A stretch of DNA of 64,000 nucleotides, taken from an uncultured delta proteobacterium. GTDB taxonomy: Bacteria; Desulfobacterota; Binatia; UBA9968. Position 1 is the first letter of the stretch, and each line of letters starts with the position of its first letter. A program made the translations under genes and the position numbers. The notes beneath the pieces are model-generated. The model was given only the letters and a program-made list of their open reading frames with translations, was not told where the DNA came from and searched no databases. The stretch is taken from positions 128,001 through 192,000 of the forward strand of contig CAVXEP010000019.1 in NCBI GenBank assembly GCA_963760795.1. Direction: 5' to 3'. Positions 8,344-50,902 of the stretch are shown here, one piece after another.

Positions 8344-9643
8344 AGCAATTCTATTCATTAGCCTAGTCGCTATGGGCGCGGGCGTGTTGGCGCAGTCCAA
8401 GGACGCGGCTGTGCCCCATGTCGATCTGATCGCCATCGACGGCAGCATCAATCCGGCGGTGGATGATTTTATCCGCGAAGGCATCGCGCGGGCGAAGCAT
8501 AATGGCGCGCGGGCGCTGATCATTCAGCTCGACACTCCCGGCGGGCTGCTCAATTCCACGCGCACCATCGTCAAGGAAATGCTCGGCGCTCAGGTTCCGG
8601 TCATGGTCTGGGTCGGACCGAGCGGCGCCGGCGCGGGCTCGGCGGGAGTGTTTATCACTCTGGCCGCCCATATCGCGGCGATGGCACCGGGCACCAACAT
8701 CGGCGCGGCCCATCCGGTGGCCGGTGGCGGCCAGGAAGTCAAAGGCGTGATGGGCGAGAAGATCGAGAATTTCACGGCATCGTTCAGCGAGAGCATCGCG
8801 CAGAAACGCGGCCGCAACGCCGAGTGGGCGATCCAAGCGGTACGCAAGAGCGTGGCGATCACCGAGAGCGACGCACTCAAGAAGAATGTCATCGACATCG
8901 TCGCCAAAGACATTGACGATTTGCTCAAGCAAGCCGATGGCCGCAAGGTCGATCTCGACGGCAAAATGCAGGTGCTGGCGCTCAAAGACGCCAAGGTGAA
9001 TCGCCACGACATGAGCCTGAAGCAGAAGGTCTTGAATACCCTGGCCGATCCCAACATCGCTTATCTGCTGATGATGGCCGGTCTGCTGGGATTGTATATG
9101 GAGTTTTCCCATCCCGGCGTGATTTTCCCTGGCGTGGCTGGGGCGATTTGTTTGTTGCTGGCGCTGGCATCGTTTCAACTTCTGCCGCTCAACTACACCG
9201 GTCTCACGCTGATCGCATTGGGGATAGGGTTGCTAGTTTCGGAGATGTTCGTGCCTAGTTTCGGCGTCTTAGGAATCGGCGGGATTTTTGCGCTGGCCAT
9301 CGGCTCGCTGCTTCTTTTCGATACCGAAAGCTCGGATCTGATCGTCGACCGCGCGATCGTTTTCACCGCGGTGGGCACGGTGGGGGCGATCATGCTTGGT
9401 TTGAGCTATTTAGTATTTCGCACCCAGCAGGCCAAGCCGACCATGGGCATGGCAAGTTTGATCGGCAAGATCGGCGAAGTCAGAGCCGAGCTCACGCCGG
9501 CAGGCAAGATTTTTGTCCATGGCGAATATTGGAACGCCCGCGCCGAGACGCCGATCGAGGTGGACGCCAAGGTCGAAGTAATCGGCTACGAGGGTATGAC
9601 ACTCAAAGTGCGACGGGCGGCGGGTGGCGAACTGGTAGGTTAA
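8327..9643 (+). CDS. nfeD: NfeD family membrane-bound serine protease
   Basis: LDTPGG, AGSAG, MAPGTNIGAAHPV, transmembrane region, C-terminal OB fold GEYWNA. Confidence 0.92.
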   Translation: MVKTLKAILFISLVAMGAGVLAQSKDAAVPHVDLIAIDGSINPAVDDFIREGIARAKHNGARALIIQLDTPGGLLNSTRTIVKEMLGAQVPVMVWVGPSGAGAGSAGVFITLAAHIAAMAPGTNIGAAHPVAGGGQEVKGVMGEKIENFTASFSESIAQKRGRNAEWAIQAVRKSVAITESDALKKNVIDIVAKDIDDLLKQADGRKVDLDGKMQVLALKDAKVNRHDMSLKQKVLNTLADPNIAYLLMMAGLLGLYMEFSHPGVIFPGVAGAICLLLALASFQLLPLNYTGLTLIALGIGLLVSEMFVPSFGVLGIGGIFALAIGSLLLFDTESSDLIVDRAIVFTAVGTVGAIMLGLSYLVFRTQQAKPTMGMASLIGKIGEVRAELTPAGKIFVHGEYWNARAETPIEVDAKVEVIGYEGMTLKVRRAAGGELVG

Positions 9644-9658
9644 CAACAGGAGGTCGAC

Positions 9659-10411
9659 ATGTTTGGTTTCGGACCGATAGCGACATTTCTCGTCATTGCG
9701 GTTGCGGCGCTGGTCAGCGGCATCAAGATTCTCAAAGAGTATGAGCGCGGCGTGGTGTTCCGCCTCGGCCGCATGGTCGGCGCGCGCGGTCCGGGGATGG
9801 TTTACGTCATTCCGGGCATCGAAAAAATGGTCAAAATGGATCTGCGCACGGTGACCATGGATATCCCGCCGCAGGACGTGATCACCCGCGATAACGTTTC
9901 GGTGAAAGTCAACGCGGTGCTTTATTTTAGGGTCATCGATCCCAATCTGGCGGTTCGGGAAGTGGAGAATTATCTTTTTGCCACCTCCCAACTCGCCCAA
10001 GTGACGCTGCGCAGTGTCTGCGGCCAGGGCGAACTAGACGAACTCCTGTCCGAGCGGGAAAAGATCAACAGCCGCATTCAAGACATCTTGGATAAGCAGA
10101 CCGATCCCTGGGGAATCAAGGTCGTGTTGGTTGAGCTGAAGCATATCGATTTGCCGCAGGAAATGCAGCGCGCCATGGCGAAGCAGGCCGAGGCCGAGCG
10201 CGAACGGCGTGCCAAAGTCATCCACGCCGAGGGTGAATACCAGGCTTCGCAAAAGCTCGCTGACGCCGCCGGAGTCATGGCTTTGCAACCGATGGCGTTG
10301 CAGTTGCGTTATCTTCAGAGTCTGGTCGAAATCGCCTCGGAGAAAAATTCGACGACGATCTTCCCCATACCCATCGATCTATTGACGCCGTTCTTGAAGA
10401 AGGACACTTAA
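9659..10411 (+). CDS. slipin / SPFH (stomatin-like) protein
   Basis: [27 protein letters not shown] and [15 protein letters not shown]; canonical partner of nfeD. Confidence 0.94.
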
Positions 10412-11862: not shown

Positions 11863-12972
11863 ATGGGCAATCATTTCACACTAATCAAGAATGACACGAG
11901 CACCAAGGCCCGCCTCGGTCGCCTAACCACGCCGCATGGGGTGGTCGAAACGCCTTGCTTCATGCCGGTGGGGACGCAGGGCACGGTCAAGGCGGTGTTG
12001 CCGCGGGATTTGCATGAGTTGGGGTGTCAGATCCTGCTCGGCAATACGTACCATCTGTATTTGCGTCCCGGTCATGAGCGGATTCGCCAGTTGGGCGGGC
12101 TGCATCGCTTCATGAACTGGCCGGGGCCGATCTTGACCGATAGCGGCGGCTATCAGGTGTTCAGCCTCGGCGCCATGCGCAAGATCACCGAGGATGGCGC
12201 GCGCTTTCAATCGCATATCGACGGCTCGTCCCATCTGCTGACGCCGGAAAAGGCGGTGGAGATTCAGGAAGCTTTGGGCAGCGACATTGCGATGGTGTTG
12301 GACGAGTGCATCCCGCACGACGCGGCACGCAGCTATGTGCGCGAGTCGACGGAGCGGACGATCCGCTGGGCCGAGCGTTGTTTGAATGCGCGCCATCGGC
12401 CGGCGCAGTTGATGTTCGCCATCGTTCAGGGCGGCATGTTCGAAGACCTGCGGCGCGCTTGCGTCGACGCGCTGTCGGTGATGGCATTCGACGGCTTTGC
12501 CGTCGGCGGCCTCGGTGTCGGCGAGGGTGAAGAAAAGCTCAATACCGTCGGCGCGTTCACGGTAGACTTATTGCCCGAGGATAAACCGCGTTACTTGATG
12601 GGCGTCGGCCGGCCGCAGGATATCATTCACGCCGTGCGCGCCGGCTTCGATATGTTCGATTGCGTGATCCCGACCCGCAACGGCCGCAACGGCACGTTGT
12701 TTACCTGGCAAGGCAAAGTCAGCATCAAACGCGCCGAGTTTGCCGACGATGCGCGGCCGCTGGACGAGAACTGCGGCTGTTATAGCTGCGCCAACTTCTC
12801 GCGCGCCTACCTGCGCCATCTGTTCATGGCCGGCGAGATCCTCTCGGCGCAGCTAAATTCGCTGCACAATCTTTACTTTTACCATCGCCTCATGGATAAG
12901 TGTCGGGAAGCGATTCGCGACGGGCGCCCGGAGCTATGGGCCGAGCTCGTCAAGTTCGCCGAAGCTTCATAA
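11863..12972 (+). CDS. tgt: tRNA-guanine transglycosylase
   Basis: FMPVGT, NTYHL, DSGGYQVFSL, LDEC, RYLMGVG, FDCVIPTR and the CGCYSC zinc site. Confidence 0.97.
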   Translation: MGNHFTLIKNDTSTKARLGRLTTPHGVVETPCFMPVGTQGTVKAVLPRDLHELGCQILLGNTYHLYLRPGHERIRQLGGLHRFMNWPGPILTDSGGYQVFSLGAMRKITEDGARFQSHIDGSSHLLTPEKAVEIQEALGSDIAMVLDECIPHDAARSYVRESTERTIRWAERCLNARHRPAQLMFAIVQGGMFEDLRRACVDALSVMAFDGFAVGGLGVGEGEEKLNTVGAFTVDLLPEDKPRYLMGVGRPQDIIHAVRAGFDMFDCVIPTRNGRNGTLFTWQGKVSIKRAEFADDARPLDENCGCYSCANFSRAYLRHLFMAGEILSAQLNSLHNLYFYHRLMDKCREAIRDGRPELWAELVKFAEAS

Positions 12973-12993
12973 GAAAACCCTTGAGGAGGAATT

Positions 12994-13329
12994 ATGGTCG
13001 ATTTTGCTTACGCCCAGGCGGCGCCGGGCGCTGCCGGACCGGGACCGTTGATGACGATATTCCCGTTCATCATTATTCTCGTCATCATGTATTTCATGGT
13101 GTTTCGGCCGCAGCAGAAGAAGCAGAAAGAGCACCAGGAGATGCTCAATAAGATAAAAAGAAACGACGAGGTGATGACCTCCGGGGGAATTTACGGTAAG
13201 GTGACCGAAATCAAAGATCAGGTGGTGACCCTCGAAGTTGCGCCGAACGTGCGTATCCGCGTGAATCGTCCGCAGATCTCTGCCGTTATTACCGCCGACA
13301 AGGCATCAGCCAAAGACGGAAAGGATTAA
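12994..13329 (+). CDS. yajC: preprotein translocase subunit YajC
   Basis: YFMVFRPQQKKQK and VMTSGGIYG; position in tgt-yajC-secDF. Confidence 0.95.
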   Translation: MVDFAYAQAAPGAAGPGPLMTIFPFIIILVIMYFMVFRPQQKKQKEHQEMLNKIKRNDEVMTSGGIYGKVTEIKDQVVTLEVAPNVRIRVNRPQISAVITADKASAKDGKD

Positions 13330-38571: not shown

Positions 38572-40290
38572 ATGGCAGAGGGAGACAGTAGCAAAGATAG
38601 CTCGGCGAATGAGTCGGTGCCATCTCATTTCATTCGTAACATTGTCGTTGAGGATATTCGGCAGAACAAAAATCACGGCCGAGTCCATACTCGGTTCCCG
38701 CCGGAGCCCAATGGCTACTTGCACATCGGTCACGCCAAATCGATCTGTCTCAATTTCGGCTTGGCTGCCGAGTTCGGCGGCAAGTGCAATCTGCGTTTCG
38801 ACGACACGAATCCAAGCAAGGAAAATGTCGAGTACGTCGATTCGATCAAAGAAGACGTCCGCTGGCTAGGGTTCGCTTGGGACGGAGAATATTACGCCTC
38901 GGATTATTTCGAGCGGCTCTACCAGTTTGCCGCGCAATTAATTCACGCCGGGATGGCGTTTGTTTGCGATCTCAACGCCGAGCAGATGCGCCAGTATCGC
39001 GGCACGCTCACCGAGCCGGGCAAGCCCAGCCCCTATCGCGACCGCTCGGTGGACGATAATCTCGACCTGTTTCAGCGCATGCGCACCGGCGAAGTGCCGG
39101 ACGGCGGCCGCACGTTGCGCGCCAAGATCGATATGGCGTCGCCCAATATCAATCTGCGCGATCCGGTCATGTACCGGGTGCTGCGCGCGACCCATCATCG
39201 CACCGGCGATAACTGGTGCATTTATCCAACCTACGACTTCGCCCACGGCCAATCCGATTCCATCGAAGGCATTACGCACTCGATTTGCACGCTGGAGTTC
39301 GAGGATCACCGGCCGCTGTACGATTGGTTTTTGGATCGACTGGCCGTGCATCATCCGCAGCAGATCGAATTTGCCCGGCTCAATCTAACTCACACCGTGT
39401 TGAGTAAGCGTAAGCTCCTGCAACTGGTCCAGCAAAAGCTTGTGGCCGGCTGGGACGATCCGCGCATGCCGACGTTGGCCGGCATCCGCCGGCGCGGTTA
39501 TACGCCGGAAGCGATTCGTAATTTTTGCGAGCGGATCGGCGTGGCCAAAGGCAACAGCACCGTCGATATCGCCATGCTTGAGCATAGTCTGCGCGAGGAT
39601 CTCAACAAGCGCGCGCCGCGCGTGATGGCGGTGTTGCGGCCGATCAAAGTCGTCTTGGAAAACTATCCTGAGGGTCAGGTCGAAGAGTTGGAAGCGGTCA
39701 ACAACCCTGAAGACCCTAGCGCCGGCACGCGCAAAGTTCCGTTCTCCCGCGAGCTTTACATCGAGCAGGACGATTTCCGTGAAGAGCCGCCCAAAGGATT
39801 TTTCCGTCTCTCACCAGGCACAGAGGTCCGTCTGCGTTACGCCTATATCATCAAGTGCAACGAAGTCGTAAAAGATCCCAGCAGCGGTGAGGTGCGCGAG
39901 TTGCGCTGCACCTACGACTCGGAAACGAAAAGCGGCTCGTCGCGAAGCAAGCGCAAAGTCAAAGCGACAATCCATTGGGTATCCGCATCTCATGCCGTCG
40001 AGGTTGAAGTCCGACTCTACGATCATCTTTTCGCGGTGGAGGACCCCGATGACGTACCGGAAGGCGCCGATTGGCTCGCTAACATCAATCCCAGTTCCCT
40101 GGAGCGTCTCGTCGCGTGCCGTGTCGAGCCCAGTCTCGCTGGCGCAAAAATCGGCGAGCGCTATCAGTTCGAACGGCTGGGGTATTTCTGCGTCGATCGG
40201 GAGTCGACGGATCAACGAAATGTGTTCAATCGCTCAGTAACGCTGCGGGATACATGGGTGAAAGTGGGGAGGGTGAGGAGGAGCACCTAG
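38572..40290 (+). CDS. glnS: glutamine--tRNA ligase
   Basis: [41 protein letters not shown] and QFERLGYF. Confidence 0.97.
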
Positions 40291-40382
40291 CGCCAGTTAG
40301 AGGATGTAAGACCTTTTTGGAGAAATTCCAGTCTTTAGTCATTGATTTGGATGATTGACAGGTCGCCGCGTAGTTCACCGGT

Positions 40383-41654
40383 TTAAAATTTATACCCCAC
40401 TGATACGATGACAAAGTTACTAAACGTTTCATACTGATCTTTGCCTGGAGCGCCTGCGAAGGGTATTCCGGTCGCAGGTGTCCCTTCCAGCTCGTTGTTG
40501 GTTATCCGGCGAGTTTTGTAGAATACCGCTTGATAACCCAGGTCGAAAGAAAATTTTTCCCATTTATAGCCGATACCTACATTCAAGGTGAGTTTGTCTG
40601 CATCGGGGATGCTGGGATTTTGTGTGCCGTTTGGTATCGGAGTTTCTTCAACCGCGAGTCCGCCGCGCAGTTCAATATTCTTAGTTAGGCTATAGTGGCT
40701 GCCAAATCTGACCGTACTCGTGTCTTGCCAATTTTGTGGAAGATTAAAACCGGGCAGCGGCCCGCTCTTAAATGTCGCTTTGAATGTCTTAAATTCGCTC
40801 CAGCGGGTAAATTCATAGACTAATTCCGCGCCCCAGGCCGGTGTTATTTGCCAGTGTGCACCGGCGTTAATAACGGGTGGCAGCGGTATCGGCTGAACAT
40901 CTGCTTTCACTTTCTGGCCACCCAGCACTCCACCAAGTTTCGCGTCGGCATCATCGAACCGAATATCTGTCCGTCCACGATAGCTGAATCCAAACTTCCA
41001 GTTATCCAAAGGCTTGATTAATAGACCGACGTTGTATGCGAACGCATTCGTTGTGTCGGTCACGCGCAGGTGCGCTTCTGCCGCTCCAGGCGCGAACGTA
41101 CAAGCCAGAGTGTTAAAGCAAAGAGAGCGAGAGAATAACCCTGACGCATGGACGAAACTAGCACCGGCGCCAATCGACAGTATCGGCGAGGGATGCCAAG
41201 ATAGCGATGGAGTGACATACAATGTTCGAAGCTCCGTACGTTCGGCGGCGAAACGGGTGAAGTCCCGCTCATACGTTGTCGCAAGTCCAAAAGGTGTGTA
41301 GGTTCCGATACCCGCCGAAATGTCAGTGCCGGGGATATGATAGTTGGCGAAGAGGCTCCCGAGGAAGTTGTCGTCGTGTTTGTTTACTGCCTCTCGGCCA
41401 CTATTCTCCACCGAACTTACGGCCCCAATATACATTCCATTGAGGAGAAGGTTGTTCCCAGGCACTTCTGAAAGCGCAGCAGGGTTATAATAGACGGCAG
41501 ACGCATCATCAACGCCGGCAGTCATGGCATTGGAGAGAGACAGTGCTCGAGCGGTCTGGTGTGGTATCATGAACCCGCCCGAAATCGCCAAGTCGTTTCC
41601 GTTAAGCAAAGTGACCAATAATAGACCGTAAAATCCTAATCTCGTGTTGGCCAT
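40383..41654 (-). CDS. FadL/OmpP1 outer-membrane channel for hydrophobic compounds
   Basis: hatch motif NAMTAGVDDASAVYYNPAAL, TPFGLAT, WSEF, PSIPDAD, C-terminal YKF. Confidence 0.88.
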   Translation of the reverse strand: MANTRLGFYGLLLVTLLNGNDLAISGGFMIPHQTARALSLSNAMTAGVDDASAVYYNPAALSEVPGNNLLLNGMYIGAVSSVENSGREAVNKHDDNFLGSLFANYHIPGTDISAGIGTYTPFGLATTYERDFTRFAAERTELRTLYVTPSLSWHPSPILSIGAGASFVHASGLFSRSLCFNTLACTFAPGAAEAHLRVTDTTNAFAYNVGLLIKPLDNWKFGFSYRGRTDIRFDDADAKLGGVLGGQKVKADVQPIPLPPVINAGAHWQITPAWGAELVYEFTRWSEFKTFKATFKSGPLPGFNLPQNWQDTSTVRFGSHYSLTKNIELRGGLAVEETPIPNGTQNPSIPDADKLTLNVGIGYKWEKFSFDLGYQAVFYKTRRITNNELEGTPATGIPFAGAPGKDQYETFSNFVIVSVGYKF

Positions 41655-41743
41655 CTGATTCCTTAGAAAATCGTTGACTCTTAGAGCCGGACTTTGTATA
41701 TCAATGCAAACAATTGCCAATGATTGCCATAAGTGAGGAGCCA

Positions 41744-41935
41744 ATGCAAGAAAATTTACTAACGGCCGAGCAGGTCGCTCAGTATCTGAAAGTGGATAAA
41801 TTCACGGTCTACCGTTTGGTGACCAAGAAAAAGATTCCAGCTTTCAAAGTCGGTAACCAATGGCGATTCGATAAGAAAATTATCGACGCTTGGCTTTTGA
41901 AGAACTCGAACATGGGAGATCAGACAAATCTTTAA
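41744..41935 (+). CDS. excisionase-like helix-turn-helix (HTH_17) regulator
   Basis: RBS GAGGAG; LLTAEQVAQYLKV..TVYRL....IPAFKVGNQWRF. Confidence 0.88.
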   Translation: MQENLLTAEQVAQYLKVDKFTVYRLVTKKKIPAFKVGNQWRFDKKIIDAWLLKNSNMGDQTNL

Positions 41936-42013
41936 TATGAACAACGTTAGGGGAGTTAGGATCGCCCTAGCAAAGTTGCTGAGTACCCCCACTAGAATTC
42001 GCGGATTGGCGTA

Positions 42014-43276
42014 GTGATGCACTCGAATGAGAGAAAAGTAGCCATTACCGGTCTTGGGGTTTTATCCCCAATTGGGATTGGAAAAGAGCTGTTTTGGGAG
42101 GGTATCAAAAGTGGGCGTTCGGGCATCAAACCGATCACAGCGTTCAACTCGGAAACCTTTCCGGTTCGCATAGCAGGTGAAATTTGCGATTTTGATCCTC
42201 ATTCTTTTTTCCCGCAAATCCTCCTTCGACGGCTGGATCGTTTTGCCGTGATGGGACTAGCAGCCACAAAGCTCGCAATGGAAGACGCCGCTCTACCCGA
42301 TAAATTTAGCGAGGACGAAAGCGATAGGGTCTGTGTTCGAATCGGGACCGCAATCGGCGCTTTGGCCCATGCGGAGGAAGTTCATTCGATCTTCATTGAG
42401 AAAGGGGCTAGGCGCATCCCGCCTTTTTTTAGTAGCTTAGTCTTACCAAGTTCACTTGCCACTCAAATCGGTATGTTTTGTGGCGTACATGGCTCAATAT
42501 CCACGATAGTCTCAGCGTGTGCATCCGGAACTTCGGCTATCGGCGAGGCATTTAGGCTGATTCGGCGAGGTGAATATGATGTGGCCATCACTGGTGCATC
42601 GGACGCGCCGATTACACCTTTGGTCATTACAGCGTTCTCCTCAGTTGGCCTTCTGTCATCACGTAACGATGAGCCGACTATGGCCTGTCGTCCATATAGT
42701 ATCGACCGCGATGGGATTGTGCTTGCTGAAGGTGCAGCCATCGTTATTCTCGAAGAAATGAATCATGCTCTCTCTCGTGGTGCTCGAATTTATGGGGAAA
42801 TTCTTGGTTATGGGGAGGCTTTTGATGGCTTTCACACCCACCATCCGCTTCCCTCAGGTGATTTCTGCGTGAGAGCGATGTCTGCCGCACTTAATGATGC
42901 TCACCTTAACTGTGACGACGTCGATTATGTGAATCCGCACGGAAGTGCATCAATTCAAAATGATAAAGCAGAAACGATGGCGATAAGGAAAGTTTTTGGC
43001 AACCATGCAGGGCAACTTTGTGCGAGTTCGACGAAGTCCATTATTGGTCACAGTCTCGGAGCTTGCGGTGCGTTAGAATTTCTCGCCTGTGTTTTAATGT
43101 TAGATCGTCAGTACATTCACCCAACCCTCAACTTAACCAGCCAGGATCCGGAGTGTGATCTTGACTTCGTTCCAAATGTTGGACGAGCGACGTCTGTTCG
43201 AAACATCATGAAATTGTCGAGCGGATTTGGTGGTTACAATGCTGCCTGCGTACTCGGCCAAGGCGATCATAGATAA
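42014..43276 (+). CDS. stand-alone FabF-like beta-ketoacyl synthase
   Basis: VAITGLG, SACASG (Cys), VNPHGS and GHSLGA (His-His), SGFGG. Confidence 0.9.
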   Translation: MMHSNERKVAITGLGVLSPIGIGKELFWEGIKSGRSGIKPITAFNSETFPVRIAGEICDFDPHSFFPQILLRRLDRFAVMGLAATKLAMEDAALPDKFSEDESDRVCVRIGTAIGALAHAEEVHSIFIEKGARRIPPFFSSLVLPSSLATQIGMFCGVHGSISTIVSACASGTSAIGEAFRLIRRGEYDVAITGASDAPITPLVITAFSSVGLLSSRNDEPTMACRPYSIDRDGIVLAEGAAIVILEEMNHALSRGARIYGEILGYGEAFDGFHTHHPLPSGDFCVRAMSAALNDAHLNCDDVDYVNPHGSASIQNDKAETMAIRKVFGNHAGQLCASSTKSIIGHSLGACGALEFLACVLMLDRQYIHPTLNLTSQDPECDLDFVPNVGRATSVRNIMKLSSGFGGYNAACVLGQGDHR

Positions 43277-43277
43277 C

Positions 43278-45449
43278 GTGTCCTGGTACATTATAAATTA
43301 TTTGTTCGGGGCTTTGTCTTCACTTGTTGCTGGACTCTTCATTTTATATCGAGGAGAGACGCGAGTGTCGACGAGGCGAACCTGGTTCGCCCTTTGTGTA
43401 TCTGTCAGCGGCTGGCATCTCGGTCGTTTTCTGATGACTCAAGCCGCAACCGAGGTTGTTGCCCAATACGCAACGCTGATAGTTTATCTTGGAGCGATAC
43501 TGATACCTCCAACGTATTTGCATTTTGTACTTTCTTTATTGACAGAAGAAAAGCGACATTTGAGGCTGTTAGTTGTGGCGTATGGTGTTGCCCTGATCGA
43601 GTTCTTTTTCTACTTTCATGGGTCGCTCTTGAGTGGAGTACGGCAGTATTCATACGGAGGATTCTACGAGATCCCTGGGGAGTTTTACCTGGTATACGTT
43701 GCTAGTTTCGTCGCCTTGCCAATCATAGCGTTCGCTAAATTACTCGACTCTTTTCGCCGCACCGATGCGGTTGTGAAGAGAAACCAACTCAAATACGTAA
43801 TTTATTCAACTGTGATTGGGTTCGTTGCGGGCGGCATGTCGTTCACTCCATTCTTTACGTCGCAAGTGCCACCCTTTGGGGCGCCTCTAGTCTATCTCTA
43901 TACTTTGCCTATTACCTATGCCGTTACGCATTATCGGTTAATGGATATCAGCGTAGTCATTAAGCGAAGTGTCATTTACGCGGCGTTACTTGTAGGACTG
44001 TTAATCCCGTGTTTCCTAGTCGTCATTTGGGGACAGCATCTTGCCTTTGACGCCGTAAATGTCAATTTTTCTGTCGCGATTCTTCTTTTATTCATAACTG
44101 TCGGTTTTTTATTTCCCAAAGTTCGCTTCAGAACCGAAGATGCGCTAGAGCGAGTGCTGTTCAAGAAGGGATTTGACTACCGTGAAACCCTGCTGCGCTC
44201 CAGCCAAGACATGGTCTCAATCGTCGAAATCAAAGCGCTATCTGTAAAACTCGTTGAGACTATCGGCAAGTCGCTGCGGATTGACAAAGTTTCGCTTCTG
44301 CTCAGCAACGAAGGGAAGGGCAGTTACAATTTAGAAGCGAGCGTTGGCCTCGACTTCGAGCATCCGGAGCGAATACTCTTGTCGCGCGATGGACCCTTGA
44401 TCAAGCTCTTGCAGAGCCGCAAAGAGCCGATCATCAAGGAGGAGCTAGAGTGGGTGCCGGTGGGACCGGAGACGCCGCAGACGATTGACACCATGGGCAA
44501 GCTCGGCGCGGAGATCAGTTTGCCGATCATCTCGAAGGAAAAGCTCATCGGTATTTTGAATTTGGGCCACAAAGAAGACAAATCTCTTTACTCGGATGAA
44601 GATTTGGAATTGCTTTCAACCCTAGGGAATCAGGCGGCGATCGCCATCGAAAACGCCCGGCTATATGAAAATCTCAAACAATCCCAAGTGACTCTGCGGC
44701 GAGCCGATCGGCTTTCTTCGTTAGGTTTGTTGACCGCCGGGCTGGCCCATGAGATCCGCAATCCGTTGGTGGCGATCCGCACCTTTACACAACTCTTGCC
44801 AGAACGCTACAATGACGCGGAATTCCGCGATGGGTTTCAGGGTTTGGCGCTCAAAGAGGTTGACCGCATTTGTGGTTTGATCAACGATCTGCTCAGTTTC
44901 GCGCGCCCGTCTAAGCCCAATGTCGCGCCGGAAAATATCAACGATGTGGTCGACAACATCGCGCGTATTTTGGAGGCTCAGGCCAAGGAAAAAGGCGTTG
45001 TCATCGTTCGCGACTTCGCCACCGAGGTTCCCAAGGCCTGGATTGACAGAGAACAGATGAAGCAGGTATTTATGAACCTCATACTCAATGCGATCCAAGC
45101 CATGGACGGAGAGGGTTCCATCACAATCTCGAGCCGGGAGGTTACGCGCCGAGGCACGGCGCCGGTCGGGCAGTTTGTCCAGGTGGAGGTGCGCGATACC
45201 GGTGTCGGTATTCCGGACGATAATCTGGAGCATATTTTCGATCCGTTCTTTACCAGCGGCAAGGAAGAAGGCAGTGGCTTGGGGTTGGCCGTGTCTCATC
45301 AGATTGTCGAGGAACATGGCGGTTTTCTCACCGTGGAGAGTAAGGTAGGACAGGGAACCGGGTTTTTTGTCCATTTGCCTGTTAGCGCTCCGGTTCGGGC
45401 CGGCGCGAGCGGTATGGCTAACACCCACGAGCGGTACGGTTTTCACTGA
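43278..45449 (+). CDS. sensor histidine kinase: ~7-8 TM + GAF + HisKA + HATPase
   Basis: hydrophobic N-terminal 290 aa ending YAVTHYRLMDI, GAF (YSDEDLELL), AHEIRNPL, N/G1/F/G2 boxes; start approximate. Confidence 0.92.
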   Translation: MSWYIINYLFGALSSLVAGLFILYRGETRVSTRRTWFALCVSVSGWHLGRFLMTQAATEVVAQYATLIVYLGAILIPPTYLHFVLSLLTEEKRHLRLLVVAYGVALIEFFFYFHGSLLSGVRQYSYGGFYEIPGEFYLVYVASFVALPIIAFAKLLDSFRRTDAVVKRNQLKYVIYSTVIGFVAGGMSFTPFFTSQVPPFGAPLVYLYTLPITYAVTHYRLMDISVVIKRSVIYAALLVGLLIPCFLVVIWGQHLAFDAVNVNFSVAILLLFITVGFLFPKVRFRTEDALERVLFKKGFDYRETLLRSSQDMVSIVEIKALSVKLVETIGKSLRIDKVSLLLSNEGKGSYNLEASVGLDFEHPERILLSRDGPLIKLLQSRKEPIIKEELEWVPVGPETPQTIDTMGKLGAEISLPIISKEKLIGILNLGHKEDKSLYSDEDLELLSTLGNQAAIAIENARLYENLKQSQVTLRRADRLSSLGLLTAGLAHEIRNPLVAIRTFTQLLPERYNDAEFRDGFQGLALKEVDRICGLINDLLSFARPSKPNVAPENINDVVDNIARILEAQAKEKGVVIVRDFATEVPKAWIDREQMKQVFMNLILNAIQAMDGEGSITISSREVTRRGTAPVGQFVQVEVRDTGVGIPDDNLEHIFDPFFTSGKEEGSGLGLAVSHQIVEEHGGFLTVESKVGQGTGFFVHLPVSAPVRAGASGMANTHERYGFH

Positions 45450-45765
45450 TAATGCGGACCTTAGTCATTGATGAGTCTGTGGGCGTTTACAAAACGCCGA
45501 CTTCAACCAGCTGTTGCAAAGCGCGATTGCGCTCGAGGAAAAGACCAAAATCGCCGGCGGCCAGATTCACGCCTTGCACTAAACGGTAACCCCGTTTGAT
45601 TGGAAGAAAAACGGACGCTTCAGACCAATTTGCTCCGACAAAAAACAGCTGGCGTACATCGAACGATCGTTGTTCGATTGTCATTCTTGTCACTTTTTGC
45701 CCACCGTTGACAGTGTCAAGGTTGCTTCCCGCAAGCTAACTGTTTGAAAAATAAACGCTGCGAAT

Positions 45766-45781
45766 TGGCCTGTAGGTTGCT
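45766..45781 (+). promoter_or_regulatory. sigma-54 promoter 1
   Basis: TGGCCTGTAGGTTGCT has exact -24/-12 spacing; IHF-like site 45737-45749 (reverse TTTCAAACAGTTA); SD GAGGAG just downstream. Confidence 0.7.
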
Positions 45782-45804
45782 GATAGACAGCTCTGAGGAG
45801 TACC

Positions 45805-46053
45805 ATGACATGTTGATCAGCCAGCCCGGACCTTGGCCATGACCTCGGTCAAGGTGGCCCTATGGGGTCGGTCGCCGATTGCTTGAACGCCCACAGCGTT
45901 CGGCCCGAGGATAGCCGCCTGCTGCTTGGTGCGTTGTTAGCCAAACATTGGGTGGAAAAAAACGGCGACCGCTTTATCACGGACCAGCCCAAGGCGGAAA
46001 TAGACATGGTTAGAATGGAGTTCCCGATTGTTGAGTACGGAAAAAAAAACTGA
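45805..46053 (+). other. small sigma-54-driven ORF or RNA of uncertain nature
   Basis: SD + ATG ACA TGT TGA, in frame with the 63-aa ORF 45862..46053 that ends 1 nt before the next start. Confidence 0.35.
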
Positions 46054-46054
46054 C

Positions 46055-47467
46055 ATGAGTCAGCCCTTATTGTTGGTGGTGGACGACGAAGCCGGCGTGC
46101 GCCAATCGCTGCAAATGGTGTTCAACAAGATTTACCGGGTTTTGGAAGCCTCGTCCGCCGATGAAGCGATGCAGAAGGTTACCGAGGAAAGGCCAGACGC
46201 TGTGCTCTTGGACGTCATGATGCCGGGCGCCGACGGCCTCGGTGTGCTCAAGCAAATCAAATCTATCCACCCCGACTGCCAGGTGATCATGCTCACCGGT
46301 ATCAATACCGCCAGAACGGCATTTACGGCCAAGGGAACTGGCGCCTTCGATTATGTGACCAAGCCATTTGACGTGGAAGAACTGCGTTTGCGCGTCGAGC
46401 ATGCGCTGGAAAAAGTCCAGCTGTCGAGAGAATTGGAGCGCTTGAAGGAGGAAGTCGGCCGCAAGTACGGCATCGACTTCATCATCGGCAAGTCCAAGCA
46501 AATCACCGACGTCTTCAAAGCGGTCAGCATGGTGGCGGCGAAAAAAAGCACGGTGCTGATTACCGGTGAAAGCGGCACCGGCAAGGAACTCATCGCCAGG
46601 GCGATTCATTACAATAGTGACCGGCGCTCGAAACCTTTCGTGGTGGTGAACTGCGCCGCCTTGCCGGAAAATTTGATGGAGAGCGAGCTGTTCGGTTATG
46701 AACGAGGCGCTTTTACTAACGCGTCGCAGAAGAAGATCGGCCGCTTCGAACTCGCCCATGGCGGCACGTTTTTCCTTGATGAGATCGGCGAACTCGACAT
46801 CGGTGTCCAAGCGAAGTTTCTGCGCGCTATCGAACAAGAGACTTTCAGCCGTCTTGGTGGTACGGACGAAATCAAAGTGGACGTGCGCATCATCGCGGCG
46901 AGTAACCGCGATCTGGAGCAGATGGCCAAAAACGCTGAGTTCCGGCCGGATCTGTTCTACCGGCTCAATGTGATTTCTTTGTTCTTGCCCCCGCTGCGCG
47001 AACGCCGTGACGATATTGTCTTGTTGCTCGACCATTTCTTGCGCCTCAAATCCCAGGAACATTCGATCGCTGCCAAGACGCTGTCCCCTGAGGTTGTCGA
47101 CTTTTTCACGTCTTATCCTTGGCCAGGTAACATTCGCGAGCTGGAGAATTTGATCGAACGCCTGACGATTTTGACGCCTCAAGAAACCGTGACGCTGCGC
47201 GATTTGCCGCCGAGCTTGCGCTCGACGGATCAAACCGCCACGCTCAAAGAAGACGTCTTGAGCGGTTCGCGGCCGCTGAGCGACGCGGTTGACGAGTTCG
47301 AGCGCGAGCTGATCGTCAAAGCCTTGCAGCGCACCGGCTTCAATCAGACCAAGGCCGCATTGATTCTCAACACCAGCCGGCGCATCCTCAAGTACCGCAT
47401 CGAGAAACTCAAGATCCACAATCCCAACGATGAGGACGACGATGACGAGGTGAAATTATCGTCATAA
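46055..47467 (+). CDS. sigma-54-dependent response regulator (NtrC/AtoC family)
   Basis: REC, GESGTGKE, ESELFG..GAFTNA, FLDEIGE, WPGNIRELEN and Fis HTH. Confidence 0.95.
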   Translation: MSQPLLLVVDDEAGVRQSLQMVFNKIYRVLEASSADEAMQKVTEERPDAVLLDVMMPGADGLGVLKQIKSIHPDCQVIMLTGINTARTAFTAKGTGAFDYVTKPFDVEELRLRVEHALEKVQLSRELERLKEEVGRKYGIDFIIGKSKQITDVFKAVSMVAAKKSTVLITGESGTGKELIARAIHYNSDRRSKPFVVVNCAALPENLMESELFGYERGAFTNASQKKIGRFELAHGGTFFLDEIGELDIGVQAKFLRAIEQETFSRLGGTDEIKVDVRIIAASNRDLEQMAKNAEFRPDLFYRLNVISLFLPPLRERRDDIVLLLDHFLRLKSQEHSIAAKTLSPEVVDFFTSYPWPGNIRELENLIERLTILTPQETVTLRDLPPSLRSTDQTATLKEDVLSGSRPLSDAVDEFERELIVKALQRTGFNQTKAALILNTSRRILKYRIEKLKIHNPNDEDDDDEVKLSS

Positions 47468-47557
47468 TTGGACATTTTTGTTGCCTTCAGCTTCCTTAAC
47501 GGTCCCTTCTTGCGGGAAAACTCCCTCTAAATTCAATCCCTTACCTAAAACCCCTGG

Positions 47558-47573
47558 TGGCATGCGCCTTGCT
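47558..47573 (+). promoter_or_regulatory. sigma-54 promoter 2
   Basis: TGGCATGCGCCTTGCT; IHF-like ATTCAATCCCTTA at 47531-47543. Confidence 0.75.
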
Positions 47574-47587
47574 GAAATAGCTTCGCT

Positions 47588-48697
47588 ATGGATGCCAGCA
47601 AACCCAACATATTAGTCGTCGATGACGAGATGGGACCGCGAGAATCGCTCAAGATGATTCTCAACCCCTATTACAATGTGCTTATCGCCGACCGGGGCGC
47701 CCAGGCGATCGAGATGCTCAAGCGGCATCCGGTGGACCTGGTGACCTTAGATCTCAAGATGCCGGGGCTGACCGGCATCAACGTGCTGGAGAAGGTCAAA
47801 GCCCATGATCCCGACATCGAGGCCATCATCATCACCGGCTATGGCTCGCTCGACACGGCCATCGAAGGTTTACGCCTGGGCGCGTTCGATTATATCTCTA
47901 AGCCCTTCGACGTGAACCACATCCTGTCGCTGGTCCGGCGTGGCTTGGAACGGCGCACCGCGAAGGCCAAACTGCGCCAGGTCAAGTCCGATTTTCTCTC
48001 CAACGTTTCCCATGAACTGCGCACGCCGCTCAGCGTGGTTGTCGGCTTCGTCTATCTGCTGCTCAACCAGGTCATCGGCAAGCTCAGCGAGGAACAGCAG
48101 AAGGTTCTCGAAACCGTCTACCGCAATTCGGAAGAGCTTTTGGAGTTGATCGATAACGTGCTGTGGATGACTTCGCTCAACGCCGGCGACGCCAGCGCCA
48201 GTGTCGAGAAGTTCGATGCCCGCGATCTCGTCAAGGAATCGGTTGACCGGCACGAGAAGATGATCCGCGATAAGGGCTTGCAACTCAATGTGCAGTTCGC
48301 CGACGGCGATTTGTCGATGGTCAACGACCGCGCCAAAGTCGAACGGGTTTTTCAGAATATTTTTAATAACTCAGTCAAGTTCACCGCGGCAGGCGAAATC
48401 ACGATCAATGTCGGCGCGTCGGCGGACCGCGCCGCTATGGATTTTGAAATCATCGACACCGGGGTCGGTATCGAGCAGGACAAAATCGCCACGATTTTCG
48501 AACCGTTTCATCAAGCCGACAATTCGTCGCGGCGCGCCTTCTCCGGTTTGGGCATCGGGCTCACGGTGGCGCGCCGCATGGCTGATCTCATCGGTGGTAA
48601 ACTAAGCATCACCAGTAATCCCAACGTCGGGACCCGAGTCCTCATGAGCTTCCCGGCCCAGGCGGCGCTGGCCGCGCAACAGAGAAAATATGCTTAA
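47588..48697 (+). CDS. hybrid receiver-histidine kinase (REC-HisKA-HATPase)
   Basis: VVDDE/DLKMPG, SHELRTPL, NNSVKFT, DTGVGI and GLGIGL. Confidence 0.92.
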   Translation: MDASKPNILVVDDEMGPRESLKMILNPYYNVLIADRGAQAIEMLKRHPVDLVTLDLKMPGLTGINVLEKVKAHDPDIEAIIITGYGSLDTAIEGLRLGAFDYISKPFDVNHILSLVRRGLERRTAKAKLRQVKSDFLSNVSHELRTPLSVVVGFVYLLLNQVIGKLSEEQQKVLETVYRNSEELLELIDNVLWMTSLNAGDASASVEKFDARDLVKESVDRHEKMIRDKGLQLNVQFADGDLSMVNDRAKVERVFQNIFNNSVKFTAAGEITINVGASADRAAMDFEIIDTGVGIEQDKIATIFEPFHQADNSSRRAFSGLGIGLTVARRMADLIGGKLSITSNPNVGTRVLMSFPAQAALAAQQRKYA

Positions 48698-49391
48698 CCC
48701 GAAATTTATCCGCTGCCGCAACTGTGATGCCGTGCATCATGTGACAGCGTTTGATAAAGCGCCCAGCTATTCCGTTTCAGCCGGCAAAGCCAACGAAACG
48801 GCGGCCAACGATTGGCATGATTTTATGAGCAGTCATGCCGGCCATCGGCTCGAACCGCTTGAGGCCACCGGGCAGAGCTATTTCTCCGACGGCCCGAGCT
48901 CCGATCCCATGGCCACTGGCTTTATCGAGGCTACCGACGGCAAGGAGACCGTCTTACTGCGGCGGGTTCGGTCGACTATTCAGGAGCCACTGCGGTTTGA
49001 ATGGGTTCCAGGCCGACTGGTCCCGGGAGAGTCGACTCTCGACGTACAGGAAAACTCGCTGCGCAAGGAAATGAAACTGCATTTTCCCTGGGCGCCGGCA
49101 GAGCCTTTGTCCGACCAGAAAATCGATTTGTTCGTGCACCTTTATCGCCAGGTCGTCAGCGGCCTCGACGCCCGCTCTGTTTACAGCCGCGAGTTCACCC
49201 TGGTCGATGACAATATCGTTTACGGACAGCTGGACGCTGCCGCCTGGAGCACGCTCCTGGACAATTGCCGAAGCTGCTTTACCACGGACGAGGTGGCGGC
49301 GTTACGCCGATTCATCGAATGCCACCGCGACGCGGACGATGTTTTGGCAGTGGTGATCCGGCGTGGCATGGTCGTCGAGCAACGGCTGTAA
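48690..49391 (+). CDS. hypothetical protein with CxxC and HxxH (possible Zn site)
   Basis: IRCRNCDAVHH...SHAGH; overlaps the upstream stop. Confidence 0.7.
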   Translation: MLNPKFIRCRNCDAVHHVTAFDKAPSYSVSAGKANETAANDWHDFMSSHAGHRLEPLEATGQSYFSDGPSSDPMATGFIEATDGKETVLLRRVRSTIQEPLRFEWVPGRLVPGESTLDVQENSLRKEMKLHFPWAPAEPLSDQKIDLFVHLYRQVVSGLDARSVYSREFTLVDDNIVYGQLDAAAWSTLLDNCRSCFTTDEVAALRRFIECHRDADDVLAVVIRRGMVVEQRL

Positions 49392-49752: not shown

Positions 49753-50902
49753 ATGGCGCAAGATTTTGTCGGTACTAAACGCTGGGTAAGGCAGGCCACT
49801 TCCTACGAGCTTTACATGGACGAGCAAAATCTGCCGATCCATCGCGGCACGGTGGGGTTTTACGACATTCGCGATCTGACTTTGGCGCCTTGGAAGCGCA
49901 TGGGCGCGCAAGGCGCGTTCATCGACCTTAACGGCTGTGGCGGTCTTCAGGGGATGTACGTTATCGAGGTGCCCAGTGCCGGCGTGATTACTCCGGAAAA
50001 GCACATGTACGAGGAGATCTTCTACGTGCTTGAGGGGCGCGGCACGACGGAGATCTGGAACGACGGCGATGGCAACAAGACGCAGACCTTCGAGTGGCAG
50101 CAGGGTAGCCTCTTTTCTCCACCGCTGAATACCTGGCACCGCATCGTCAACGCCACCTCCAGCCCGGCGTTGCTCCTCAGCGTGACCAATGCGCCGCCGA
50201 TCTTTCACCTGTATAGGAGTCAGGACGCGCTGTTTAACAATCCGTACCAATTCAAAGATCGCTACGATGGCAGTGCGGATTACTTCAAAGCGCAGTCAGA
50301 ACTCGGCAAGGATCCGCGCCACGGCCGGGCGCGCAACTACGGTAACATTATCCCGGACGCCGACCGCGTCGAGCTGCCGCTTGACGGTCAGCGCGGCGTC
50401 GGCCACCGGACTTTCTTTTGGAACCTGTCCGGCAATAGTTTTCAGGGCTTCATCGCCCAGTATGCGCCCGGCCGCTACTCCCGCTGTCACAACCATGAAG
50501 CCGGCCCGGTGCTGTTGTGCTTAGGCGGCAAGGGCTACACGATCACCTGGCCCGGCGAGGCGGGGACCACGCCGTGGAAAGACGGCAAGGGCGAGTTGGT
50601 GCTACGCCAAGACTACAAGCCCGGCGGCATCGTCAGTGCCGCCCCCGGCGACGCCGGCTGGTTCCACGGCCACTATGGCGCATCGAAAGAACCTTTGCGT
50701 GTGCTCGCCTTCCTGGGCGGCTTTCCCAGGCGAGTCATGGGTGTGCCCGGCGTCGATTGGCGCGGATTGAATCTCGACATAAAAGAGGGCGGCAGCACCA
50801 TCGAGTACCGCGACGAGGATCCGTATATTCGCAAGATGTTTCAAAGAGCAGTTGGCCAAGGAAGGCGCAGCGTTCAATATGCCTGAAGAAGCGTATCTGT
50901 AA
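49753..50902 (+). CDS. bicupin domain protein (indel near 50843)
   Basis: EKHMYEEIFYVLEGRG..PPLNTWH and a second cupin HNHEAG..GWFHGH. Confidence 0.8.

Follow-up and report, generated by a model that had tools for sequence, protein, structure and literature searches.

A variable enzyme and sensor cassette upstream of a conserved sigma-54 relay in uncultured Binatia: a candidate synthase and receptor for a lipid-type signal

Introduction

When the gene for a ketosynthase (KS) lies directly in front of the gene for a membrane-bound sensor kinase, the question arises whether the enzyme makes the molecule to which the kinase responds. Such a pair is found at positions 40,383 to 49,391 of a 64,000-nucleotide stretch of DNA from an uncultured delta proteobacterium (assembly GCA_963760795.1, contig CAVXEP010000019.1, positions 128,001 to 192,000), the whole of which we call the window. 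The original prediction proposed a lipid-signal system resembling quorum sensing, in which the FabF-like KS would make an acyl-derived signal, a FadL channel would move it across the outer membrane, the seven-transmembrane (7TM) domain of the kinase would sense it, and a sigma-54 activator would provide the output instead of LuxR. After comparing the locus with its relatives, we favour on balance a reading in which a polymorphic cassette would encode the synthase of a self-made lipid signal together with its cognate 7TM receptor and feed a conserved sigma-54 relay. The two computational checks suggested with the prediction, recurrence of the neighbourhood and phylogeny of the KS, both came out in its favour. 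Its pairing of synthase and receptor and its sigma-54 output gained support; the role given to FadL and the claim that the output is unusual did not.

Results

All genes named in the prediction were found in their places by Pfam and NCBIfam searches. The KS gene (42017-43276, plus strand) encodes a FabF-like (KAS II) protein of 419 aa, the candidate signal synthase, which belongs to clade A of the KSs described below. Its stop codon TAA occupies 43274-43276 and the kinase gene (43278-45449, plus strand) starts with GTG at 43278, 2 nt on, confirming that the kinase directly follows the KS; this start is backed by the N-termini of orthologues (MSWY...). The kinase has 723 aa and the architecture HisKA_7TM-GAF-HisKA-HATPase_c. 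We retrieved 41 loci for comparison, mostly from Candidatus Binatia records, some of them under older delta-proteobacterial labels, and all from metagenome bins. The recurring gene order is gltX, glnS, fadL on the opposite strand, HTH gene, enzyme, 7TM kinase, X628, NtrC, second kinase, and a gene for a 233-aa protein, and the distance from KS stop to kinase start is -4 to 27 nt in the loci with full coordinates. The combination recurs widely across the family, at the same site beside glnS. Within the genus, 12 of 31 genomes have an orthologue of the kinase's sensor part (474 aa), truncated at a contig end in two cases, and the 7TM kinase has orthologues in 46 of the 89 other genomes of the family and in 2 of 5 and 0 of 28 genomes of the other two families of the order. 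The tallies over 31 and 89 genomes, here and below for X628, take in the unpublished genomes G004, G082, G085, and G093.

The slot between the HTH gene and the kinase gene is filled by a single enzyme gene in all 37 evaluable loci, and the enzyme can be of three types: a KS (22 of 37), a fusion of a LuxD-like acyltransferase with a methyltransferase (12 of 37), or a class-II-aldolase-like protein of 495-540 aa (3 of 37). The methyltransferase part of the fusion is nearest to the BioC (BioC/Mtf2-like), DVU_1556, and fatty-acid O-methyltransferase families. Within the window's own genus the fusion type rests on the unpublished genome G004, on which the other 11 loci do not depend. A structure model of the 495-aa protein (pLDDT 90.5) combines a Rossmann-like N-terminal domain with a C-terminal fold of the class-II aldolase superfamily (Z 14.2, rmsd 2.9 over 172 residues). 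The 495-540-aa protein has more than 380 homologues, of which the 120 listed carry no Pfam domain and, where named, are only called "hypothetical", and a protein atlas search with the 495-aa enzyme gave no usable match. Some loci carry genes for a DesA-like desaturase or an SDR protein as accessories next to fadL. The 495-aa family (gene at 8442-9929 of locus L063) also has conserved His and Cys clusters, and one of its listed homologues comes from a Bacteroidetes bin.

The proteins of the locus have diverged to very different extents. Mean pairwise identity is 0.79 for GlnRS, 0.77 for NtrC, and 0.70 for the kinase domain, and it falls to 0.57 for the GAF domain, 0.56 for FadL, 0.51 for the KS, and 0.41 for the 7TM domain. 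The 7TM domains fall into four deep clades, whose stem branches measure ~0.8-1.2 changes per site; several genera are found in every clade, and the window's genus is represented in all four. When the enzyme types were mapped as labels, the 7TM tree required 3 changes, which is the minimum, whereas the genus-following NtrC tree required 12. There is a strict correspondence, with no exceptions, of KS clades A, B, and C to sensor clades A, B, and C; the LuxD fusion pairs with sensor clade D, and the 495-aa protein pairs with a sub-branch of sensor clade A. In Mantel tests on 18 genomes, distances between KSs correlated with those between 7TM domains (r = 0.91) and not with those between NtrC proteins (r = -0.16), whereas distances between kinase domains correlated with those between NtrC proteins (r = 0.90) and those between 7TM domains did not (r = -0.01). 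Therefore, the two halves of one kinase protein follow different partners. The same split is seen between the window genome and its relative G003, which are 0.97 identical in NtrC and 0.93 in the kinase domain versus 0.48 in the KS and 0.35 in the 7TM domain.

Nucleotide identity along the locus outlines the exchanged block. Between the window and G003 it is 0.80-0.91 up to ~40300, 0.41-0.66 over ~40300-44200, and 0.86-0.91 thereafter; between the window and G019 the flanks are 0.89-0.98 identical, with 0.43-0.52 over 42100-43900 and 0.94 from 44200. The right border, at the junction of the 7TM and GAF domains, is common to both comparisons. The left border differs: fadL belongs to the divergent block in one case and is mostly excluded from it in the other. 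At its widest, the hypervariable cassette, to which no strand is assigned, spans 40300-44200 with fadL, the HTH gene, the KS gene, and the 7TM part of the kinase gene, and its G+C content dips to 0.48-0.50, compared with ~0.57 elsewhere. The window genome and its two nearest relatives, G003 and G019, carry types A, B, and C, and an intact X628 gene was found in none of the three; if they share the loss of X628, the cassettes were exchanged after it. On these trees and alignments, the enzyme and the 7TM sensor domain are a unit that is swapped as one block between close relatives. A variable enzyme and sensor half, a conserved kinase half and regulator, and discordance with the species tree are hallmarks of a pherotype locus, and these are present here. 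The locus likewise has an enzyme gene next to a kinase gene and co-evolution of the two, as expected of two-component autoinducer systems with the synthase next to the receptor kinase. The predicted pairing of synthase and receptor thus gains strong, if indirect, support from the co-diversification and joint exchange of enzyme and 7TM domain, a support that does not extend to FadL.

The KS itself is a paralogue with intact catalytic residues. It scores 155.7 bits for ketoacyl-synt and 108.9 bits for Ketoacyl-synt_C (Pfam), stays below the cut-off of the FabF equivalog TIGR03150 (467.5 versus 493.75 bits), and exceeds that of the KAS II subfamily NF005589 (448 versus 387 bits). Subfamily score, the two domains PF00109 and PF02801, and catalytic residues together place it among the KAS II-type enzymes. 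The genome contains 11 KS-like matches, and the single one that passes the FabF equivalog cut-off (644.1 bits) is encoded elsewhere on the contig and is 42% identical to the window KS. An alignment to FabF structures runs from end to end (E 1e-111) and shows the deviating motifs LSSGFGGYN and DGFHTHHP that had been pointed out. As predicted, the Cys-His-His triad is kept: Cys168, His308, Lys340, His345, and the gatekeeper Phe404 are retained in the window KS and in 22 of 22 locus KSs, so that judging by these residues the enzyme looks catalytically competent. Dozens of positions at which at least 12 of 13 housekeeping FabFs agree are altered in the locus KSs in a clade-specific manner. In a tree of 39 proteins, these 13 housekeeping FabFs, taken from the window genome and related genomes, form a tight clade with 99% support, and all 22 locus KSs fall outside it on longer branches; a repeat with 41 rows gave the FabF clade 100% support and again excluded the locus KSs. 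The phylogeny thus separates the KS from housekeeping FabF and, together with the scores, marks it as a paralogue other than the housekeeping enzyme. The remark that the KS has no acyl carrier protein (ACP) as a neighbour was borne out, as none of the 26 PP-binding matches of the genome lies inside the window and the nearest is ~44 kb from the KS.

Further KS genes were noticed elsewhere. A type A locus (L082, in G072) has a second, long-branched KS gene at 11883-13100, on the opposite strand between fadL and the HTH gene, whose product shares 45% identity with the window KS. The window genome has, on a different contig (G000:C3:186963-207817, loci L004-L007), 4-5 divergent KS genes together with small ACP-like reading frames, probably as a polyketide or aryl-polyene-type gene cluster.

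The sensor kinase contains, according to Pfam, HisKA_7TM at ~43314-43949, GAF at ~44247-44654, HisKA at ~44721-44909, and HATPase at ~45045-45383, the HisKA_7TM match (PF16927) scoring 33.4 bits over a cut-off of 28.6. The NtrC-type sigma-54 activator encoded at 46055-47467 (plus strand) has the typical architecture of REC, AAA+ (Sigma54_activat), and HTH_8 domains. Its scores remain under every equivalog cut-off (NtrC, 443.4 versus 558.6; AtoC, 474.3 versus 714; PrsR, 404.4 versus 502.6; LuxO, 345.7 versus 800), as do those of the kinase for PrsK (133.2 versus 300) and AtoS (248.4 versus 646). On these equivalog scores we rejected an assignment of the pair to PrsK/PrsR, known from PEP-CTERM systems, or to AtoS/AtoC. 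Within the genus, NtrC is 85-98% and the second kinase 77-95% identical. The second kinase (47588-48697, plus strand) consists of REC, HisKA, and HATPase domains without a membrane or sensor domain.

The sigma-54 output that had been predicted is backed by a conserved promoter. A sigma-54 promoter (TGGCAY-N5-TTGCT) precedes the second kinase gene in 29 of 31 evaluable loci, and the window has TGGCATGCGCCTTGCT at this conserved position (47558-47573, plus strand), with 1 mismatch to the consensus. The position of the promoter therefore implies that the sigma-54 output feeds at least the second kinase and the 233-aa protein. Scanning the window with the exact sigma-54 consensus gave 0 matches, and with 2 mismatches allowed 23 matches versus 30.6 expected; the scan alone is meaningless, and only the site at 47558 gained weight because it is conserved across loci. 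Right past the NtrC stop codon, many aligned loci have a palindrome-like GGACAwwwTTGTyC, which in the window is the imperfect palindrome TTGGACATTTTTGTTGCC (47468-47485, plus strand), 72 nt before the -24 element; its conservation makes it a candidate binding site for the activator. A search of the window's own genome for palindrome plus sigma-54 pattern matched only this locus. The 233-aa protein (48690-49391, plus strand), whose gene overlaps the stop of the second kinase gene, is present in 21 loci and has an N-terminal CxxC...HH motif with invariant C9, C12, H16, and H17. No match to it was found in Pfam or NCBIfam, and the best structural match of its AF2 model (pLDDT 85) reached a Z score of 5.2, too low to be meaningful. 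The relay may have this protein as its actual effector.

Most relatives have an additional relay component between the 7TM kinase and NtrC. X628, a 628-aa protein with REC, AAA, and HisKA domains, is intact in 73 of the 89 other family genomes. At this place the window has a gap of 579 nt (45450-46027) without a long open reading frame, and a comparison with 32 X628 proteins (tblastn) revealed a decayed remnant of the C-terminal third of the gene at 45487-46038 (plus strand; best E 2e-17, 25-31% identity, X628 residues ~473-628). G019 also keeps a decayed remnant by the same method. This remnant and the gene of the 233-aa protein had been overlooked in the prediction.

The HTH gene, the KS gene, and the kinase gene appear to form one operon that runs divergently from fadL. 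The HTH gene (41744-41935, plus strand) encodes a 63-aa DNA-binding protein of the HTH_17/excisionase family (TIGR01764, 54.6 bits), whose N-terminus MQENLLT... recurs in the 31 loci where it was found, with a mean identity of 0.68. The fadL gene (40383-41654, minus strand) probably starts with ATG at 41654, according to an alignment of the intergenic region; the longest open reading frame reaches to 41744. Its product is a FadL/TodX-family outer-membrane channel (Toluene_X, PF03349, 205.6 bits over a cut-off of 29.7) and scores far below the equivalog of E. coli-type FadL (NF007988, 87 versus 585). At 20-30 nt past the fadL start codon, the 31 aligned loci have a near-consensus sigma-70 promoter (TTGACT, 17 nt, TATATA-like), with TTGACT and T.TATA reaching 80% consensus. 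In the window this sigma-70-type promoter of the operon is at 41674-41702 (plus strand; TTGACT, 17 nt, TATATC). Between the -10 box and the HTH start, the same 31 loci have three TGCCAAA-like heptamers at 10-bp spacing, with ..TGC.AA.., ..TGC.AAA, and ...TGCCATA at 80% consensus. The corresponding direct repeats of the window (41705-41731, plus strand; TGCAAAC, TGCCAAT, and TGCCATA) are a candidate operator to which a protein may bind.

FadL/TodX channels are encoded in nearly all loci. The proposal that FadL moves the signal found no support, because FadL does not co-segregate with the enzyme or sensor type and is retained beside input modules without a lipid enzyme, as described in the Discussion. 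Two genomes of one genus, one of type A and one of type C, even share a nearly identical FadL. By its distribution, FadL is a constant companion of the locus that stands outside the specificity unit.

The association extends beyond Binatia. Full-length relatives of the kinase, with 23-35% identity, are present in 8 non-Binatia loci, 6 of which have enough upstream sequence to be judged. Four of these six, from Elusimicrobiota or a related bin, contain genes for NtrC, a KS, 1-3 B12 radical SAM enzymes, and a HisKA_7TM-GAF kinase, and one Elusimicrobiota-type locus adds an ICMT-family methyltransferase. The fifth (L167) has NtrC and a FabH-like KS III, the end of whose gene overlaps the kinase start; the sixth has only a PorV/FadL-like outer-membrane protein, which is divergently transcribed. 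The Elusimicrobiota KSs are sister to Binatia KS clade C (95% support), and a weakly supported branch (76%) separates all 26 kinase-linked KSs from housekeeping FabF. Judged from gene content and these trees, the association of a KS with a HisKA_7TM kinase recurs independently of the Binatia locus.

Discussion

In the mechanism that we propose, the specificity cassette would consist of an enzyme, here the FabF-like KS, and the 7TM domain of the adjoining kinase. The KS would draw on the cell's pool of acyl-ACP and malonyl-ACP to make a hydrophobic acyl-derived molecule, which would partition into membranes and be recognised by the cognate 7TM domain. The kinase would then set the phosphorylation state of NtrC, and NtrC would turn on the sigma-54 operon. 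The conserved output would comprise the GAF/kinase half, X628 in most relatives (decayed here), NtrC, the sigma-54 promoter, the second kinase, and the 233-aa protein. Three features point to a hydrophobic acyl-derived ligand: the lipid-type enzymes, a sensor embedded in the membrane, and the fusion predicted to form methyl esters. Since near-identical genomes exchange synthase and sensor as a pair, the molecules "spoken" would differ between lineages, in the manner of pherotypes.

Several observations weigh against this reading. No thioesterase or other release enzyme is encoded beside the KS in the window. A sigma-54 promoter in front of fadL or the HTH gene, that is, of the enzyme operon, was found in 0 of 31 loci; therefore, the positive feedback typical of many autoinducer systems is not visible. 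Two unrelated enzymes, KS-A and the 495-aa protein, are found as partners of sensor clade A. The FadL tree requires 11 changes of type label where the minimum is 3, and clades A and B are not clustered on it. At least 8 further Binatia loci have a non-lipid input module at the same site, made up of a VTC-domain protein, an MFS transporter, a PhnD-like periplasmic binding protein, and an sCache/HAMP kinase. These loci (L149, L150, L151, L153, L158, L162, L164, and L169) have the X628-NtrC-kinase core still accompanied by fadL and/or the HTH gene, with fadL retained in most of them, and the conserved relay is therefore not tied to lipid enzymes. The p-value of the Mantel correlation between KS and 7TM domain (2e-4, 5000 permutations) is overstated owing to the non-independence of related genomes; the clade-level pattern stands without it. 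All genomes are metagenome bins, that of the window being 88.9% complete with 6.2% contamination. Single borders could be affected by chimeric assembly, which cannot explain the overall pattern because intact reading frames occur in more than 40 separate bins. Direct contact between the two proteins, or sensing of a membrane-resident product in the same cell, would also make enzyme and sensor co-vary. The product, its identity with the 7TM ligand, its exit from the cell and any part of FadL in it, the direction of signalling, the regulon, and a dependence on cell density are what we infer, and with them the term "quorum sensing".

The sensing of a membrane-resident product leads to an explanation that we consider unlikely, though more probable than the other alternatives: a feedback within the cell, in which the enzyme makes or remodels a membrane lipid, the 7TM domain reads this lipid or the state of the bilayer, and the relay adjusts the envelope with no signal passing between cells. 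DesK/DesR works by such a logic, with a multi-pass membrane kinase tied to a fatty-acid-modifying enzyme, which is the regulated output. The link between a membrane kinase and a fatty-acid-type enzyme is shared by our locus, where the KS, the LuxD-like acyltransferase, and the desaturase and SDR accessories are lipid-metabolic in type, the sensor is wholly embedded in the membrane, and both a release enzyme and an autoinduction promoter are lacking; a membrane-resident ligand would also account equally well for the co-variation of enzyme and 7TM domain. However, in contrast to DesK/DesR, enzyme and sensor would be transcribed together from a sigma-70-type promoter and the genes under the sigma-54 output are others, so that the enzyme stands outside the output and is not its regulated effector. 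Genomes whose flanking DNA is 84-98% identical have exchanged discrete types, and the 7TM form is present in only 46 of 89 other family genomes, which together point to an accessory recognition trait rather than to housekeeping homeostasis. The predicted methyl-ester-forming fusion in 12 loci, moreover, suggests a product that is neutral and released.

It is improbable, in our view, that the locus serves the sensing and uptake of foreign hydrophobic compounds, with FadL admitting a lipid or hydrocarbon, the 7TM kinase detecting it, and the enzyme processing it. The near-constant presence of FadL/TodX channels would fit, as would the resemblance of the alternative module, with its periplasmic binding protein and MFS transporter, to nutrient sensing, and AtoS/AtoC are the best NCBIfam matches of kinase and activator, though far under the cut-offs. 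Yet condensing enzymes and an acyltransferase-methyltransferase fusion are biosynthetic rather than catabolic, no genes for beta-oxidation or activation are adjacent, and FadL does not co-vary with the sensor type. Less probable still is that the KS and its replacements act as co-sensors that bind the kinase, report the status of acyl-ACP or malonyl-ACP, and co-evolve with it through their interface: the tight coupling of the genes (-4 to 27 nt) and the strong KS-7TM distance correlation would be expected, but three unrelated folds in the same slot are hard to reconcile with one interface, and the catalytic residues are strictly retained in 22 of 22 KSs. That the KS is an ordinary spare FabF next to unrelated two-component genes is hardly credible, even though it scores above the KAS II subfamily cut-off, given the adjacency in all 22 KS-type loci and in other phyla and the exact match of KS and sensor clades.

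The synthase and receptor cassette that we favour has precedents among known signalling systems. In CqsA/CqsS of Vibrio and LqsA/LqsS of Legionella, which use alpha-hydroxyketones, the synthase gene lies beside that of a kinase whose membrane-embedded domain binds the hydrophobic autoinducer, and the Vibrio cascade ends in the sigma-54 NtrC-type activator LuxO. A sigma-54 output in place of LuxR is hence less unusual than had been claimed. Our locus resembles both in the adjacency of synthase gene and membrane-sensor kinase gene, and the Vibrio system in its NtrC-type sigma-54 activator. In contrast to the pyridoxal phosphate-dependent acyltransferases CqsA and LqsA, the candidate synthase is a KAS II ketosynthase; unlike CqsS, the receptor has the HisKA_7TM-GAF architecture, and the activator stays well below the LuxO cut-off (see above). 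To our knowledge, a cassette polymorphism in which whole enzyme families are exchanged is not a feature of CqsA/CqsS or LqsA/LqsS. The available part of one publication names LqsA as a signal synthase (PMC8023197).

In Ralstonia, according to the accessible portions of two papers, the methyltransferase PhcB makes a fatty-acid methyl ester (methyl 3-hydroxymyristate or 3-hydroxypalmitate) that is sensed by the histidine kinase PhcS (PMC8578825, PMC11960443). The LuxD-methyltransferase fusion of 12 relatives could make a similar ester. Unlike in PhcB/PhcS, the window carries a KS and not a methyltransferase, and the output is NtrC and sigma-54 instead of the LysR regulator PhcA. A matching pattern of variability is known from comQXP of Bacillus and agrBDCA of staphylococci: the gene for the signal and the sensor part in the membrane are hypervariable and change together, the kinase domain is conserved along with the response regulator, and the borders fall inside the kinase gene. 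The same pattern, with a border inside the kinase gene, is seen here; the peptide systems differ in that their signals are modified peptides of Firmicutes, whereas in this Gram-negative uncultured lineage the variable gene encodes a lipid-type or small-molecule enzyme and whole enzyme families are swapped.

Ketosynthases as signal synthases are known from photopyrones and dialkylresorcinols, with PpyS and DarB being FabH-like (KAS III) enzymes. They build the signal from fatty-acid-derived acyl units, and the receptors of the systems PpyS-PluR and DarABC-PauR are cytoplasmic LuxR solos, as stated in the portion of the source that was accessible (PMC7154725). The KS of our locus is of the KAS II type and the receptor a 7TM kinase, unlike in these systems; the distant locus L167 pairs a KAS III enzyme with a 7TM kinase. 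An archaeal census lists HisKA_7TM as a sensor domain and, in its available part, names no ligand (PMC5847659). A literature search found no paper with both Binatota and quorum sensing in title or abstract, and a search on ketosynthases and histidine kinases in signal synthesis, which did not extend to supplementary files, gave no comparable system among the matches listed. The swapping of enzymes in one slot, the match of KS and 7TM clades, the cassette borders, the conserved sigma-54 promoter, and the recurrence in Elusimicrobiota are new here.

A broader proposal, which we advance tentatively and with less confidence than the reading of the locus itself, is that in uncultured phyla (Binatia, Elusimicrobiota, and others) the HisKA_7TM-GAF kinases constitute a receptor class, hitherto unrecognised, for lipid-type autoinducers that the cells make themselves. 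The Binatia systems would be pherotype-like, with recombination inside the kinase gene exchanging whole synthase families (KAS II, LuxD-methyltransferase, and class-II-aldolase-like) along with the 7TM domain, so that close relatives would use chemically different signals to address one conserved sigma-54 relay. If true, the HisKA_7TM sensor domain would gain its first function, and FabF-type ketosynthases and LuxD-methyltransferase fusions would join the known signal synthases. Signal and receptor would be seen to diversify as one exchangeable cassette outside the peptide systems of Gram-positive bacteria, and cell-cell signalling in an uncultured soil lineage would become directly testable with a cassette of ~2.4-3.9 kb that comes with its own reporter promoter. 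The clade-specific changes in the KS pocket would provide a natural series for learning how product specificity is set.

Additional observations

Second 7TM-GAF kinases were encountered in most genomes of the genus; this paralogue has ~845 aa and is 22-27% identical (for example G000:C32:526086-527252, locus L061). In locus L065 of G018, the 7TM kinase gene is broken by one TAA stop at the GAF domain (~11400), making it a pseudogene or the result of an assembly error. A generic scan of the window for promoters and terminators was not above shuffled sequence (8 promoters versus 7.1 expected and 18 terminators versus 11.5).

Six runs from RNA libraries covered little of the stretch, none of them more than 0.23 of the sampled words. 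In soil and rhizosphere metatranscriptomes, contigs with 93-99% identity cover the HTH gene (41605-41939) and parts of the kinase gene, the gap, and the NtrC gene, and cover of the KS and the 7TM part is nearly absent. These contigs may stem from DNA or from relatives, and we do not count them as proof of expression.

The locus is bordered upstream by glnS (38572-40290), and its downstream neighbour is a cupin gene (49753-50886).

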